From an uncultured Veillonellaceae bacterium (GTDB taxonomy: Bacteria; Bacillota; Negativicutes; Veillonellales; Megasphaeraceae): DNA of 64,000 nt. Both the position numbers and the translations under genes were made by a program. Where the stretch lies: the NCBI GenBank assembly GCA_900546795.1, contig UREG01000001.1, forward strand, positions 29,845 through 93,844, written 5' to 3'. How positions within the stretch are numbered: the stretch's first letter is position 1; each line of letters opens with the position of its first letter. A model generated the notes under the pieces. It ran no database searches. It saw only the letters and a list, made by a program, of their open reading frames with translations, and was not told the origin of the DNA. Positions 2,057-64,000 of the stretch are shown here, piece after piece.

Positions 2057-3415
2057 TTAGAAGTTGATGAAGATAAAGACGATATTGATGATTGCGGCTA
2101 CGGCCATCGGAATTGCCGTCCGTTTTACAATATCCACCGTGCTTACTTCTGCGATGCCGGCGATTGCTACGATCGCGCCTGCAATCGGAGATACAACACG
2201 GCCAAAGCTCGTCATGATCTGCATCGGAAGAAGCAGCGCCAGCGCCGGAATCTTCATGGAAGCTGCAATGCTCGGCACCATAGCGGCAAAGGAGAAGAAT
2301 GCAGCGTTGCCGGAGCCCATGAGGAAGGCGCAGCCAGCGATAACGAAGCAGAAGATAATGATGAGCGCATATTCGCCAAGACCCATGTTCTGCGCGCTGG
2401 TCGTCAGTGCGTCTACCGCGCCGATTTTTACAAGACCTGCGGCGAATACTTCACCGGAAACGATCAGGGAAATAACCGTTGCAAAGCTGGTTCCCATGCC
2501 GTTGAACATATTTTTCAAGCTTTCAATCGTTTCACCGAATTTTTTGATCCGGAAGAACTGGAATACCATCGCAATAAAGGTGCTGAGAAACATAGCCGTA
2601 ACTACGTTGATTTTAATCGGGCTGTTGAACAGCGGGCTGAAGCCAAGGATGAAGATCATCGGAATGATCGGCAGAATCGCGAAAATTTTCGGCGGCTCTT
2701 CGCTTTCATCTTCATCGATATGGACATTGGCCATACCGGCTACAAAACCATCCCGTTTGTCCCACCATTTCTGTACGAAGTAGTGTACCACGCCAAGGAC
2801 AACCGTCGTCGTTGCGAAAATCGGCAGCTGATACTGTACGAAATATACCGCCGGATCCAAACCTGCCACGTTGGCTGCCAGGATACAGTTGCCGGAACCG
2901 GGTCCCACGTCCATATACTGTGCGCAGCCGATAACGCCGAGAGCGGAAAGTTTGCTTACGCCGGCGCGGATCAAGATCGGATACATCGTTACCATCAGCA
3001 GCATTGCCAAGCCTGCATGGCTCGGAATAAAGAGAACCAGGAACTGGCTCATGTAAAACGTCAGCGCCAGCAGTACATACGGCGAGTTTACTTTTTTAAT
3101 CGGCGTTGCAACTACCGAAAACAGCGCCTTGCTCGCTCCTAAATATTCCATGTACTTAGCAAACCCGGCGATAGACATGATCGTAAGACCAAGACCGGCG
3201 GCCCGAGAGCTCATGATCGACTGAATCGTCTGGAAGATATCCATAAACGGTGAATGCGTCGTTGCCTTCGCGCCTAAAATACCGCTGCCGTTTATTAAAA
3301 CGGCCCATGTAAGAAGTGCCATACCGGCAATGAGGAGTACAGCCTGAGGATAATGTCTTTTCACGATCATGTACACAACCCAGGCAATTACAATAAGTGT
3401 AAAAATGATTCCCAT
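2057..3415 (-). CDS. dcuC: C4-dicarboxylate anaerobic carrier, DcuC family (IT superfamily).
   Basis: 452 aa polytopic membrane protein. Alignment with E. coli DcuC is recalled from memory (regions AILPIIP..., SGNAAFFSFAAMVP...). AGGAGG RBS. Confidence 0.75.
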   Translation of the reverse strand: MGIIFTLIVIAWVVYMIVKRHYPQAVLLIAGMALLTWAVLINGSGILGAKATTHSPFMDIFQTIQSIMSSRAAGLGLTIMSIAGFAKYMEYLGASKALFSVVATPIKKVNSPYVLLALTFYMSQFLVLFIPSHAGLAMLLMVTMYPILIRAGVSKLSALGVIGCAQYMDVGPGSGNCILAANVAGLDPAVYFVQYQLPIFATTTVVLGVVHYFVQKWWDKRDGFVAGMANVHIDEDESEEPPKIFAILPIIPMIFILGFSPLFNSPIKINVVTAMFLSTFIAMVFQFFRIKKFGETIESLKNMFNGMGTSFATVISLIVSGEVFAAGLVKIGAVDALTTSAQNMGLGEYALIIIFCFVIAGCAFLMGSGNAAFFSFAAMVPSIAASMKIPALALLLPMQIMTSFGRVVSPIAGAIVAIAGIAEVSTVDIVKRTAIPMAVAAIINIVFIFINF

Positions 3416-13009: not shown

Positions 13010-13685
13010 CTTTGAAATCCTCCTTATATACGGTATTCAATACGACGCGGACAAAAATAGCGCCGACAAATTTCAATACAAACATAACGACCAGCGGCAT
13101 AATTACCGGTACGGTCAAAGCGAACATCAGCGCAGAACCGATAACGAAATAGTTATTGATCATACCTGCGCCGGAATACTGCCATGCCGCCATGATCGTC
13201 AAATCTTTTTTATTAATCAGGCCGCGGTCATACAAGTCTTTCGTCAGCGCCGCGCCTGCATCTGTACTCTGCAAGTCCGTAATCATTGCCAAACCCGTAA
13301 GGCCAGGAATACCCAACAGCGGTTTGAGCATCGGCGTAAGCAGCTTCTGCGCCGCCCGGATCGCACCGTAATGCGACAATACTTCAATACATCCGACAGC
13401 CAGCATAACGCTTGGAATCAGGGACAGAGCAAATAAGAACCCGCCGCGGGCAGATGCGCCGCCAACGCCGACAAACGTCGCTTTTTCCGGGGTCTTCATC
13501 GTACCGAATTTACCAATCAAACTGCTGAAGTCAAACGCGCTCAGCCATGCCATGCCGTCGACCTTCATAAATACGCCAGAGAAAAATAAAATTGCCACTA
13601 TCAGCGCAATGTACGCCTTAGGGCCTACTTTGAAAGAGGAGCTGTCAAATTCATTCATTGGATTTGCCTTTTTTTCTTCACTCAT
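13002..13685 (-). CDS. yjiH: YjiH-family inner membrane protein (nucleoside-recognition / Gate domain).
   Basis: 227 aa polytopic protein. Translationally coupled to yjiG. A divergent promoter region lies at 13686-13980. Confidence 0.78.
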   Translation of the reverse strand: MSEEKKANPMNEFDSSSFKVGPKAYIALIVAILFFSGVFMKVDGMAWLSAFDFSSLIGKFGTMKTPEKATFVGVGGASARGGFLFALSLIPSVMLAVGCIEVLSHYGAIRAAQKLLTPMLKPLLGIPGLTGLAMITDLQSTDAGAALTKDLYDRGLINKKDLTIMAAWQYSGAGMINNYFVIGSALMFALTVPVIMPLVVMFVLKFVGAIFVRVVLNTVYKEDFKDE

Positions 13686-29214: not shown

Positions 29215-30351
29215 CTATATGGCTTCAATCGATTTATACACTACGCTGCCCCTGCATACCGTCATCTGCGGCACGATGGCCTGAGAGCCGGTCCGTTTCC
29301 GTTTTTGCGTATCTCCAAATACAATTGTTTTTTCTTTTACTTTAAAAACGGTGATATCCCCTTCATATCCCGGCTCCAGCCGCCCCAGCATATCGGCGAG
29401 ACCCAGCGCCTTTGCCGGCGTATAGGTGCAGGCAGCCAAGATATCTTCCAGCTTCATGCCCAGCAGAAGATATTTGGACAACACGTAAGGGAGAGAAAAT
29501 ACCGGATCTTTATACAATGTTTTTACGGTAATATCCGTCGATATGATATCCGGCAAAAATCCCTGTTCTATCCCGGCCTGCGCCACTTCAAACGACCAGT
29601 GGTTGCTGCCGTTGGCCGCATCTATGATAACGCCTCGTTTCTGCGCGTCCCTTACTTCAGGATATACTTCCCCTTTTTCGTTCAAGATCGTATTTCCCGT
29701 TCCATGATAACAGTGGGCCAGCGTATCTCCCGGCCGCAGCGCAGACGCAGCTTCATCAAGTGTAATAGGCGAATCGGTGGTGTGTACGGTAACCGGCACC
29801 CCCAGCCGTTCTGCCAGTTTCAGCATGGCGTAAAACGGCCGGCTGCCCAATTCTTTTGCAATACCTTTGCTGCTGCGCATTTTCAAGCCTTTCCAGATCG
29901 CAGGATACGAGGTCAGCATCGCCTGAATCCCTTCTTCGTCCCAATATTTCGGATCCAGATCTTCATGAAATTTCATCGTCCCCATACCTGTCGGGCACAC
30001 GTTCAACAGCCCGTATATCCGCATTTCACTTCGATATACAATATTTTCTATAAAGCTTCTGGCGGTTGCCACTCCCGAGCTTCCTGCATCTACGGCTGTG
30101 CAGACGCCCTGCGGGAAAAAGTTGCTGTCCGTATCAATCCCTATTTCTGTCGTGTGGGGAAATACATGGGCGTGATAGTCGATCCAGCCTGCGGAAACAT
30201 AATACCCGTCGGCATCAAATTCTATCACCGGAGCTTGTATCTCTTCTTCCCTGCATATTTTTCCGGCATGTACATATACGTCCCGTTTAGTAAACGTCCG
30301 CTCGATCGGATCAAAGACGCTGCCGTTTCGAATAATCAAATCCTGCCTCAT
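29215..30351 (-). CDS. Amidohydrolase-superfamily metal-dependent hydrolase (deacetylase / cyclic amidase-like).
   Basis: 378 aa. HxH motif (IDYHAHV) near the N-terminus and a TIM-barrel amidohydrolase pattern. Substrate unknown. Confidence 0.72.
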   Translation of the reverse strand: MRQDLIIRNGSVFDPIERTFTKRDVYVHAGKICREEEIQAPVIEFDADGYYVSAGWIDYHAHVFPHTTEIGIDTDSNFFPQGVCTAVDAGSSGVATARSFIENIVYRSEMRIYGLLNVCPTGMGTMKFHEDLDPKYWDEEGIQAMLTSYPAIWKGLKMRSSKGIAKELGSRPFYAMLKLAERLGVPVTVHTTDSPITLDEAASALRPGDTLAHCYHGTGNTILNEKGEVYPEVRDAQKRGVIIDAANGSNHWSFEVAQAGIEQGFLPDIISTDITVKTLYKDPVFSLPYVLSKYLLLGMKLEDILAACTYTPAKALGLADMLGRLEPGYEGDITVFKVKEKTIVFGDTQKRKRTGSQAIVPQMTVCRGSVVYKSIEAI

Positions 30352-59013: not shown

Positions 59014-60372
59014 TTACGCGTTTGCCGCGTCCATCAGCCGTTTGGCTTTGATATATTCGTCGATGCCGGCAGCGGCTTTTTTGGCTTCTTTCATCGCCAG
59101 CACGACAGTCGCCGGTTCGTGCACCAGGTCGCCGGCGGCAAATACGCCCGGCACGCTGGTCATGCCGTACGGCAGCTCTTTGGTTTCCAGGTAATTCCAT
59201 GTATTGCGGGAAAGGCCGGGAACGGTATCGAGCACCGCCGCTTCCGGCACGTTGCCGACAGCCGGCACAATCACATCGGCCGGTATCGTTTCCATTTTGC
59301 CGGTAGGCACCATGGTCGCGTCTTCCAGAACTTCCTGGATTTCACAGACAAGGCCTTCTATTTTTTCCGTTCCGGTCACGCCTTTAGGAGCATGGTAGAA
59401 TAAAAATTCGATGCCTTCTTCTTTGGCTTCTTCATATTCAGAGCGCAGGCATTTCATATTCGCTTCTCCCCGGCGGTATACGACGGTCACTTTGCAGCCC
59501 AGCCGTTTGCAGGTACGCGCCGCGTCGATCGCCACATTGCCGGCCCCAATAATCAGGACCGTCTGTCCCGGCTGCACCGGAATCTCCTCTGCGCTCCATT
59601 CGCCGTTCTGCACGCCCTGCACCGTCCAAAGCAGCGCCGAAGCATCTACTATGCCCGGCAGGCCGTCATTTTCCAGGCGAAGGGTCTGGGATACATTCGT
59701 TCCCATGCCGAGGAAGCAAGCGTCATAGCCTTGTTCCCACACCTGTTCCAACGTAAGGTCGGTGCCGAATTTTGTCTGACAGACAAACTGCACGCCCATC
59801 GCTTCCAGATCTGCGATATGACGATGGACAACGGATTTTTTCAAGCGGAAGGAAGGAATACCGTATAGCAGTACGCCGCCAGGCTCGCCTTTTTCTTCAT
59901 AAACCGTCACGTCGTAATCGAGCCCCGCCAAATCATGAGCAACGGTCAGGCCTGCCGGCCCGGAACCGATAACCGCAACGCGGCCTGCTTTTTTAGTGCT
60001 TTTTTTGACCGGCCGAATATGGTTTTCCTTGTCCAAGTCCGCAATGAATCGTTCGATTTTGCCGATTTGAATGGGATTGCCTTTTTTCCCCAGTATGCAG
60101 GCGCCTTCGCATTGGTTTTCCCGCGGACAGATGCGGCCGCAGATCTCCGGCATGTTGGTATGGCGCGCCAGTATGTCCGCCGCTTCGCCAAAATTGCCTT
60201 CTGCAACAGCTTTGGTAAACTGCGGTATTTCATTGGCAATCGGACAGCCCCGGCGGCACAGCGGATTGGCGCAGTGCAGGCAGCGCCGGGCTTCTTGTAT
60301 TGCTTCTTCCATCGTATAGTCCCGATCGTGAAGTTCCTCTTCTTCAAATCGGATGCATGTGGTTTCTTCCAT
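59014..60372 (-). CDS. gltD: Glutamate synthase small-subunit-like NAD(P)H oxidoreductase (GltD family). The start is probably at MEETTCIRFEE. The ORF-track start is 28 codons upstream.
   Basis: Fe-S Cys cluster (CLHCANPLC...CPxxxxC) followed by an FAD/NAD Rossmann motif (VAVIGSGPAGL). AAGGAG RBS before the ATG at 60372. Not adjacent to gltB. Confidence 0.82.
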   Translation of the reverse strand: MEETTCIRFEEEELHDRDYTMEEAIQEARRCLHCANPLCRRGCPIANEIPQFTKAVAEGNFGEAADILARHTNMPEICGRICPRENQCEGACILGKKGNPIQIGKIERFIADLDKENHIRPVKKSTKKAGRVAVIGSGPAGLTVAHDLAGLDYDVTVYEEKGEPGGVLLYGIPSFRLKKSVVHRHIADLEAMGVQFVCQTKFGTDLTLEQVWEQGYDACFLGMGTNVSQTLRLENDGLPGIVDASALLWTVQGVQNGEWSAEEIPVQPGQTVLIIGAGNVAIDAARTCKRLGCKVTVVYRRGEANMKCLRSEYEEAKEEGIEFLFYHAPKGVTGTEKIEGLVCEIQEVLEDATMVPTGKMETIPADVIVPAVGNVPEAAVLDTVPGLSRNTWNYLETKELPYGMTSVPGVFAAGDLVHEPATVVLAMKEAKKAAAGIDEYIKAKRLMDAANA

Positions 60373-60422
60373 ACCTATCCCACTCCTTTTGTATGTATCG
60401 TTTTTTATATTCGGATATAAAA

Positions 60423-60500
60423 ATGGTGCGCCCAAGATGACTCGAACATCCGACACGCAGTTTAGGAAACTGCTGCTCTATCCACCTGAGCTATGGGCGC
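60423..60500 (-). tRNA. tRNA-Arg (anticodon CCT), CCA encoded.
   Basis: The reverse complement reads GCGCCCATAGCTCAGGTGGATAGAGCAGCAGTTTCCTAAACTGCGTGTCGGATGTTCGAGTCATCTTGGGCGCACCA. 7-bp acceptor stem, D-loop AGCTCAGGTGGATAGAGC, anticodon loop TTCCTAA, T-loop GGTTCGAGTCC-like. Confidence 0.85.
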
Positions 60501-60593
60501 ACGTGGTACAAATAGTACAAATATATTTATATCATATTCACCGTAATTTTACAAATTAGATAAGAAAATTTTTGAACAGATACTACATATTTT

Positions 60594-60835
60594 TTATCCA
60601 CAAAACCTGTATAACTTGTGGATAACTGTCATATATCCACAAGTCCAGTGTGTATGCGGTGTGAATTCCCCTCGAAATCTGTTTATCCACAGATTTCCAC
60701 AGAGTTCTCCACAGAGCTGTCCACATACGGGCAGTAGTTATCCACGGCAGAATAAAACCGATTTTCCGCTGATTTCCGCGTGATTTTGTCATTATGGTAA
60801 AAAAATATACACATAGTTGTCCACAATGTGGATAA
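60594..60835. promoter_or_regulatory. Cluster of at least nine DnaA boxes (TTATCCACA and one- or two-mismatch variants) in about 240 bp. Candidate DnaA-titration locus or oriC-type element.
   Basis: Perfect boxes at 60594-60602, 60618-60626 (reverse), 60684-60692 and 60827-60835 (reverse). One-mismatch boxes at 60633-60641, 60705-60713, 60738-60746 and 60817-60825. Two-mismatch boxes at 60693-60701 and 60717-60725. AT-rich flank at 60541-60593. Confidence 0.6.
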
Positions 60836-60856
60836 CTATGTGTATAACTTAACGGA

Positions 60857-61156
60857 TTACTCTGTATATAATTCTGCCGGACGGCTCCAGTCTACGTGCA
60901 CGCCGGTTTCTTTCCACATATATCCCAGCGCCAGCTTCAGCGTTTTTAAGCTGTCTGCCGGCACGGCCTGGATTTCTTCATACGTCTGAAGGCCCGTATA
61001 GTGGTGGAGTTTCTTTTCCGTCGTCAGGTATTCATGGGCAAGTTTTGCCAGTTCCTGATTGGGAATGCGTACTTCTACTTCTTTGGTTTCTTCGTTATAG
61101 AGGATCACGCCGTTGTCGTTATCGCCGGTATGTACGGCTACTTTCCATAAGTTCAT
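60857..61156 (-). CDS. Hypothetical 99-aa protein.
   Basis: Intact ORF in an operon-like arrangement with the downstream M20 peptidase (4-nt overlap). No family recognised. Confidence 0.5.
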   Translation of the reverse strand: MNLWKVAVHTGDNDNGVILYNEETKEVEVRIPNQELAKLAHEYLTTEKKLHHYTGLQTYEEIQAVPADSLKTLKLALGYMWKETGVHVDWSRPAELYTE

Positions 61157-63901: not shown

Positions 63902-64000
63902 ACACTAACATTCATTCTGCCGGCCTATCCTGACGCAGGATATTCTGCCAATGTTTCCACCCATTCATCACGGTCCCGATCCGCTCATAAAACGCCTTGT
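63902..64000 (-). CDS. C-terminal end of an unidentified gene that extends beyond the right window edge.
   Basis: Open reverse frame ending ...MNGWKHWQNILRQDRPAE with a stop at 63902-63904. Too short to classify. Confidence 0.3.

Follow-up and report, generated by a model that had tools for sequence, protein, structure and literature searches.

In a 64,000-nucleotide (nt) stretch of DNA from an uncultured Veillonellaceae bacterium (positions 29,845 to 93,844 of contig UREG01000001.1; hereafter, the window), a tRNA-Arg gene and a gene for an uncharacterized protein of 99 amino acids (aa) are separated by a dense array of DnaA boxes. We consider that this array is, on balance, probably an origin-proximal DnaA-box cluster (DBC), i.e., a DnaA sink that lies outside the replication origin, resembles the DBCs of Bacillus subtilis, and would functionally correspond to datA of Escherichia coli. 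We infer that the cluster is occupied by DnaA and that it affects the timing of initiation.

The cluster and the replication origin

Boxes were counted as matches to TTATCCACA with no more than two mismatches, which delimits the following feature:

60594–60847, no strand assigned: DnaA-box cluster, 12 boxes with up to two mismatches to TTATCCACA.

The 254 base pairs (bp) of the cluster hold four perfect boxes, five with one mismatch (60633, 60705, 60738, 60817, and 60839), and three with two mismatches (60693, 60717, and 60805). The perfect boxes, located at 60594 and 60683 on the plus strand and at 60617 and 60827 on the minus strand, are the only four in the window, where 0.46 would be expected; four or more were found in none of 100 dinucleotide shuffles. 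When boxes with no more than one mismatch were considered, 9 were found in 261 bp at the cluster and 14 in the remaining 63.7 kilobases (kb) (Poisson P ~ 2e-17). No second comparable cluster of boxes is present in the window. The locus thus has the composition of a DBC, with many consensus and near-consensus boxes within a few hundred base pairs of intergenic DNA. An earlier reading of the window made from its letters alone (the sequence-only reading) had reported at least nine boxes, four of them perfect; the perfect boxes are where it had placed them, and the total was an underestimate. In several contigs of the same species, a 43-aa open reading frame (ORF) is called automatically inside the cluster (positions 13071–13202 of contig L001, corresponding to 60683–60814 of the window). 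It consists mostly of DnaA-box sequence, is not called in the related lineage L007, and is almost certainly spurious.

The sequence beyond the right end of the window was reached by an exact-protein look-up with the ArsR gene located there, which returned longer contigs of the same species, all from metagenome assemblies and at least one labeled as human gut. The window differs from five of them (L001 to L005) by zero or one single-nucleotide polymorphism, none inside the cluster. Contig L001, whose sequence runs in reverse complement to the window, has the gene order yidC-yidD-rnpA-rpmH / dnaA-dnaN-S4-recF-DUF721-gyrB-... on the origin side and ...-ArsR-DinB-M20-99aa-[cluster]-tRNA-Arg-... 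on the cluster side, with the dnaA start ~7 kb past window position 64000. A bipartite oriC occupies positions 1130–1508 and 3054–3278 of this contig, about 70600–72750 in window-equivalent coordinates. The rpmH-dnaA spacer contains three perfect and three one-mismatch boxes; since the same consensus populates the canonical oriC, TTATCCACA is the organism’s own DnaA box. In the dnaA-dnaN spacer, a box is followed by a 12-bp spacer, the DnaA-trios CTACTACTACGACTACTAC, and an AT-rich run. The trio array reads (CTA)3-CGA-(CTA)2, corresponding to 3′-GAT-5′ DnaA-trios on the other strand.

DnaA-trios were searched for with the rule published for basal unwinding systems (PMC8287927), by which an origin has a box with at least three trios no more than 16 bp away and, after them, an AT-rich DNA unwinding element (DUE). 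In the entire region, a trio array accompanies a single box, that between dnaA and dnaN, where five of seven CTA triplets are in phase. No trios were found at the cluster, where none of the boxes has more than one in-phase CTA within 16 bp. Along L001, the cumulative GC skew is lowest at 3 kb, in the dnaA-dnaN spacer; from there, it stays positive past the cluster and as far as the locus extends. Genes change strand at rpmH/dnaA. The distance between the cluster and the unwinding site of oriC is ~9.8 kb. In the window itself, GC skew has a negative sign to the left and to the right of the cluster, without a switch, the genes flanking the cluster are both on the minus strand, and dnaA, dnaN, and gidA are absent.

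These data provide the GC-skew check and the dnaA position that the sequence-only reading had called for, and the origin is located at dnaA-dnaN. The same reading had noted the absence of dnaA, dnaN, and gidA and the minus-strand genes on both sides, which the gene calls confirm, and had argued against the main oriC, correctly so, a view that now rests on a canonical oriC with trios and a skew minimum 9.8 kb away. Its proposal of a cluster for DnaA titration or regulation, comparable to datA or the DBCs of B. subtilis, offers the best analogy and is strengthened by the proximity of the cluster to oriC.

The sequence-only reading had also allowed for an unconventional origin, and a second origin or a distal third component of oriC could be invoked to explain why the boxes of the cluster are more numerous and better than those in either half of the canonical oriC and why an AT-rich stretch adjoins them. 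We regard this as very improbable, given the complete oriC with DnaA-trios and skew minimum nearby, the lack of trios within 16 bp of any cluster box, and the lack of a GC-skew or gene-strand switch at the cluster in any lineage examined. In addition, the cluster is retained between convergent genes in some relatives (see below), and the AT-rich stretch coincides with a conserved tRNA promoter and, relative to the nearest box, is not on the side that a basal unwinding system would require.

Conservation of the cluster in Negativicutes

A metagenome scan added 80 loci, and the proteins were clustered at 90% identity into lineages. A cluster was called for a lineage when at least four boxes were found within 500 bp of the 99-aa gene’s stop codon; for two further lineages, there was too little sequence. 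By this measure, 20 of 33 lineages, belonging to three orders of Negativicutes, have the cluster after the 99-aa gene. Among 1982 background windows of 500 bp, six contained at least four boxes, and each of the six is either a true oriC or the cluster of lineages L119/L120, which is displaced by one gene. In these two lineages, an amino acid permease gene intervenes, and the cluster is located 2.1 kb downstream of the 99-aa gene (L120 12448–12763 and L119 8404–8720). It is exceptionally dense, with 14 boxes, 8 of them perfect, in ~310 bp arranged as two ‘>> <<’ units.

All close relatives have a box cluster immediately after the 99-aa gene. Lineage L007 (74% identity of the 99-aa protein) has the same synteny, with a tRNA-Arg CCT gene after the cluster. 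The order LysR-DinB-99aa-cluster-tRNA-Arg is found in L008 to L011 (56% identity), and in Megasphaera hutchinsoni (Veillonellales; 44% identity), the cluster directly follows the 99-aa gene. Two Acidaminococcaceae metagenome-assembled genomes (MAGs; Acidaminococcales; 28% identity) have the order PPK-99aa-cluster-tRNA-Arg CCT. The cluster of Colibacter (Veillonellales) is weak; in Dendrosporobacter (Selenomonadales), a GGDEF gene lies between the 99-aa gene and the cluster, which is directly upstream of tRNA-Arg(ACG). The outer neighbors vary: dinB, an M20 peptidase gene, PPK, or LarA upstream; tRNA-Arg CCT or ACG, a nagA-like gene, convergent nagB, a convergent P-type ATPase gene, or permease genes downstream. 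In L126 and L098, the cluster is kept between convergent genes, with no promoter to regulate. Because the block consisting of the 99-aa gene, the cluster, and often tRNA-Arg is kept over three orders while its outer neighbors change, we conclude that it is ancestral to at least three Negativicutes orders and was retained. Comparison of the window species with L007 revealed 86% identity at box positions and 56% in the rest of the spacer (Fisher p = 9e-7), which shows that the boxes are under purifying selection.

The arrangement of boxes was compared in the 20 lineages and is non-random. The gene-proximal end usually has the form ‘>> <’ or ‘>> <<’. For same-sense neighboring boxes, the spacing is 12 bp in 12 of 20 cases, and values of 11 to 13 bp dominate; convergent neighbors are separated by 22 bp (11 cases, the commonest spacing between boxes of opposite strands) or by 10 to 12 bp, and divergent neighbors are rare. 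Spacings of 12 and 22 bp equal one and two helical turns and would fit cooperative DnaA oligomers that extend from strong boxes. A search for a second shared motif in the 20 lineages found none: k-mers common to all of them derive from AGTTATCCACA, so the DnaA box is the only common element.

The gene that precedes the cluster belongs to a family with no assigned function:

60857–61156, minus strand: 99-aa ORF, uncharacterized Negativicutes family, 3′ end abutting the cluster.

A profile search with this protein returned 609 homologs, and all named ones are from Negativicutes (Megasphaera, Colibacter, Phascolarctobacterium, and Dendrosporobacter). No significant match was found in Pfam, NCBIfam, or a PDB sequence profile. 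An AF2 model of the protein has a pLDDT (predicted local distance difference test) of 95, and a Foldseek comparison of the model with the PDB yielded nothing with an E value below 0.5. The adjacency of gene and cluster in 20 lineages whose outer genes change on both sides, together with the confident fold of an unannotated family confined to Negativicutes, may suggest that the two form one module in which the protein assists DnaA at the cluster as an accessory factor, as IHF does at datA. We consider such a partnership unlikely; the joint inheritance of gene and cluster is partly explained by the fact that inverted boxes form the terminator hairpin of the gene (see below). The more elaborate version, in which the 99-aa gene, the cluster, and tRNA-Arg constitute a Negativicutes-specific initiation-control module and the protein is a cofactor for DnaA inactivation or reactivation through a DARS-like box module, is a similarly long shot. 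So is its corollary, a module coupled to tRNA transcription that would fill the role played elsewhere by YabA, Hda, or IHF-datA.

Cluster anatomy and adjacent transcription units

Within the cluster, four parts can be distinguished:

60594–60641, no strand assigned: tRNA-proximal triad, TTATCCACA (60594, plus), TTATCCACA (60617, minus), and ATATCCACA (60633, plus).

60683–60746, plus strand: helically phased array of five same-sense boxes at 60683 (perfect), 60693, 60705, 60717, and 60738.

60754–60790, plus strand: degenerate repeats GATTTTCCGC / TGATTTCCGC / GTGATTTTGT, identified as a repeat family and by reading of the sequence.

60799–60847, minus strand: palindromic four-box module followed by T7; read on the minus strand, TTATACACA-3 bp-TTATCCACA-1 bp-TGTGGACAA-3 bp-TGTGTATAT.

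The first two boxes of the triad are a convergent pair spaced 23 bp start to start, which is kept in L007 at identical spacing. In the phased array, the start-to-start spacings are 10, 12, 12, and 21 bp. The degenerate repeats share 75% identity with positions 60675–60698 and resemble decayed box units. On the minus strand, which at the cluster is the direction of both transcription and the replication fork, the order is 99-aa ORF, palindrome, degenerate repeats, phased array, triad, and tRNA-Arg promoter.

The dinB-M20 peptidase-99aa operon ends with the 99-aa ORF, and the four-box palindrome doubles as the intrinsic terminator of this operon, since as RNA it forms a hairpin (−22.9 kcal/mol, z = −5.2) followed by U7. 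Its two 20-nt arms (60846–60806) are 95% complementary. A terminator built from boxes is also present in L007 and in the Megasphaera-type lineages L044, L055, and L058. Our fixed-rule consensus scan for promoters and terminators missed it; the terminator was established by reading, folding, and conservation. The window species appears to represent a Veillonellales lineage with a GC content of ~50%, and the best match of its DinB in a collection with one genome per species is 59% identical (Veillonellaceae MAGs).

On the other side of the cluster, the following features were identified:

60424–60500, minus strand: tRNA-Arg (anticodon CCT), ARAGORN; Rfam tRNA score of 59.6 bits.

60526–60554, minus strand: tRNA-Arg promoter, −35 element TTGTAA (60554–60549), 17-nt spacer, and extended −10 element TGaTATAAA (60534–60526).

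Transcription of the tRNA gene proceeds away from the cluster. A permissive E-value Rfam scan of positions 60300–61000 returned only this tRNA, apart from meaningless microRNA-like matches on the palindrome. The promoter was read from the sequence ~25 nt upstream of the tRNA 5′ end, with its −35 element separated by 39 bp from the end of the cluster, and is conserved nearly base for base in L007; the consensus scan, which demands T at position 6 of the −10 element, missed it. The stretch at 60541–60593, which the sequence-only reading took as an AT-rich boundary of the cluster, is indeed AT-rich (79% A+T), but its role as a boundary element did not hold up: it corresponds to the tRNA-Arg promoter and its upstream region and not to an unwinding element. 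A perfect tandem duplication, GTACAAATA-GTACAAATA, is found at 60506–60523, in the leader between the −10 element and the 5′ end of mature tRNA-Arg; the L007 leader has a single GTACAAATA copy. An integration hotspot or a mobile-element origin at the tRNA gene was considered and dropped, as no integrase or mobile genes flank the locus and the block is syntenic across orders.

A rival explanation is that DnaA acts here purely as a transcription factor, which would regulate the tRNA-Arg promoter in the window species, the nagA-like gene in Megasphaera-type species, and termination or read-through of the dinB operon and play no part in initiation. In L007, L011, and the window species, the last box is 24 to 39 bp upstream of the −35 element of the tRNA-Arg promoter; the −35 element of the downstream nagA-like gene of L061 is directly adjoined by two boxes; the hairpin of the upstream operon is itself made of boxes; and some DBCs of B. 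subtilis regulate neighboring genes (PMC3245932). However, 9 to 14 boxes over 250 to 450 bp are far above the needs of a promoter, and no box overlaps the core tRNA promoter in the window species. Moreover, the cluster is kept while the downstream gene changes from tRNA-Arg CCT or ACG to a nagA-like or a permease gene, and it is kept between convergent genes. An exclusively transcriptional function is thus appreciably less probable than a DnaA sink, while a transcriptional role as an additional function is plausible.

Proposed role and comparison with known systems

If the cluster is an origin-proximal DnaA sink, DnaA would first bind the four perfect boxes and then spread cooperatively to the phased weaker boxes, which are in 10- to 12-bp and 21- to 23-bp registers. 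Roughly a dozen DnaA molecules could be held in this way, above the number on either half of oriC. Since it is located 9.8 kb from the unwinding site, the cluster would be copied within seconds of initiation. Copying would double the local sink, pull DnaA off oriC, and damp premature re-initiation, an effect demonstrated for the DBCs of B. subtilis and suggested for E. coli datA. As secondary effects, bound DnaA could reinforce termination of the dinB operon or act as a roadblock, and it could be influenced by transcription from the strong tRNA promoter 39 bp away.

Origin proximity is seen in both the window species (L001) and L007, where dnaA/gyrB are 4 to 10 kb upstream. In other lineages, gene sets near the cluster that are typical of origin-proximal regions of Firmicutes (rplKAJL-nusG, serS, holB-metG, and rpsF-ssb-rpsR near the Megasphaera, Acidaminococcaceae, and Dendrosporobacter clusters) are only suggestive. 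Several observations weigh against a DnaA sink near the origin. The distance to oriC could be measured only for the window species and L007, the loci of other lineages covering ±10 kb, and at the Megasphaera-type loci no dnaA is present within 10 kb of the cluster. Thirteen lineages, e.g., L057 and the Phascolarctobacterium lineage L130, have the 99-aa gene without the cluster, which is dispensable in some relatives. The boxes at the end of the cluster directly adjoin the −35 element of the nagA-like gene at some Megasphaera-type loci, which would suit a transcription factor as well. Last, titration would leave the same sequence signature as ATP hydrolysis of the datA type or nucleotide exchange of the DARS type.

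In L130 (10001–10443; Phascolarctobacterium) and L118 (4476–5700), tRNA-Arg genes are found 60 to 160 bp past the 99-aa gene with no box cluster, and these loci are natural “deletion” variants. A separate observation concerns L132 (1425–3987; Colibacter massiliensis type), where the holB-yaaT(PSP1)-yabB-rsmI-metG-tatD block has no gene at the yabA position and PSP1 runs straight into the methyltransferase gene. In B. subtilis, this position is occupied by yabA, whose product binds DnaA and DnaN and inhibits initiation. These Negativicutes may lack YabA, which would raise the importance of DnaA sinks that act in cis.

The control of replication initiation is poorly mapped outside E. coli and B. 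subtilis, and we know of no description of it for Negativicutes, the class to which Megasphaera, Veillonella, and other genera abundant in the gut and mouth belong. Our literature search found no paper that links DnaA boxes with these genera, in agreement with the statement in the sequence-only reading that no such element has been characterized in Negativicutes. New here are the block itself, deeply conserved together with tRNA-Arg and a small gene that lacks annotation, the conserved regularities of box arrangement, and boxes that double as a terminator. As a candidate control element, the locus is precise, conserved, and easy to mutate, its defined grammar consists of a palindrome of four boxes, a same-sense array in phase, and a convergent pair spaced 22 bp, and relatives offer natural presence/absence variants. 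For origin prediction, it is a caution that the densest DnaA-box cluster near the skew minimum is not necessarily oriC. If the cluster works like the DBCs of B. subtilis, the mechanism would be extended to a second class of Firmicutes, and origin-proximal DnaA sinks would gain support as a general substitute for control of the SeqA/Hda type. To a specialist, such a finding would be useful rather than surprising.

Among known elements, the bipartite oriC of Firmicutes with its basal unwinding system (PMC8287927) shares with the cluster multiple boxes in both orientations. The DnaA-trios, correctly placed DUE, skew switch, and adjacency to dnaA that define such an origin are missing at the cluster, and all of them are present 9.8 kb away.

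In the cores of E. coli DARS1 and DARS2 (PMC6868365), the middle one of three boxes is perfect, a weaker box of the same sense follows at a distance of 3 bp, and the third is opposed; in the sequence that we scanned, the DARS1 core read on its other strand is TAATACACA-3 bp-TTATCCACA-5 bp-AGTGGATAA. The part TTATACACA-3 bp-TTATCCACA-1 bp-TGTGGACAA of the four-box module has the same composition and orientation, and the ‘>> <’ arrangement is conserved across lineages. The cluster could accordingly be imagined as a reactivation site, at which the gene-proximal trio would assemble ADP-DnaA head to head and, through nucleotide exchange, stimulate initiation. However, the opposed boxes are separated by 1 bp here and by 13 bp in most other lineages, compared with the 5 bp of the head-to-head model. 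The trio is part of a symmetric palindrome that also acts as a terminator, inside a much larger cluster, and chance could produce such a trio where a dozen boxes point in mixed directions. DARS elements are not known outside Proteobacteria, and we find this explanation quite improbable.

Like the cluster, E. coli datA (PMC10950094) is a group of non-origin DnaA boxes beside a tRNA unit, the glyV-X-Y operon, with a neighboring unit that is transcribed toward the boxes and attenuated by a terminator, and it is thought to lower initiator activity after initiation. The two differ in that datA has 5 key boxes and the cluster has 12, and in that the tRNA operon reads into datA, whereas here the dinB operon reads toward the cluster and tRNA-Arg reads away from it. 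Read-through from the tRNA into the cluster is not expected, as the tRNA gene is downstream and its promoter lies between the gene and the cluster. Unlike the cluster, datA needs an IHF site and stimulates ATP hydrolysis on DnaA; to our knowledge, IHF is not expected in Firmicutes.

The closest counterparts are the DBCs of B. subtilis. Six of them, located outside the origin, bind DnaA, and their joint deletion leads to early initiation; a single DBC restores initiation control best when it is near oriC (PMC3245932). Okumura et al. predicted in 2012 that origin-proximal DBCs are common in Firmicutes lacking SeqA and Hda (PMC3245932), and the B. subtilis DBCs were covered further by Smith and Grossman in 2015 (PMC4447404). 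The cluster described here differs in its host, a member of Negativicutes, in its neighbors, and in that part of it doubles as an intrinsic terminator. With DBCs such as DBC[yydA-yycS] it shares an intergenic location in a Firmicutes genome, about ten consensus or near-consensus TTATCCACA boxes, a position outside the unwinding module yet near oriC, unrelated neighboring genes, and possible effects on local transcription.
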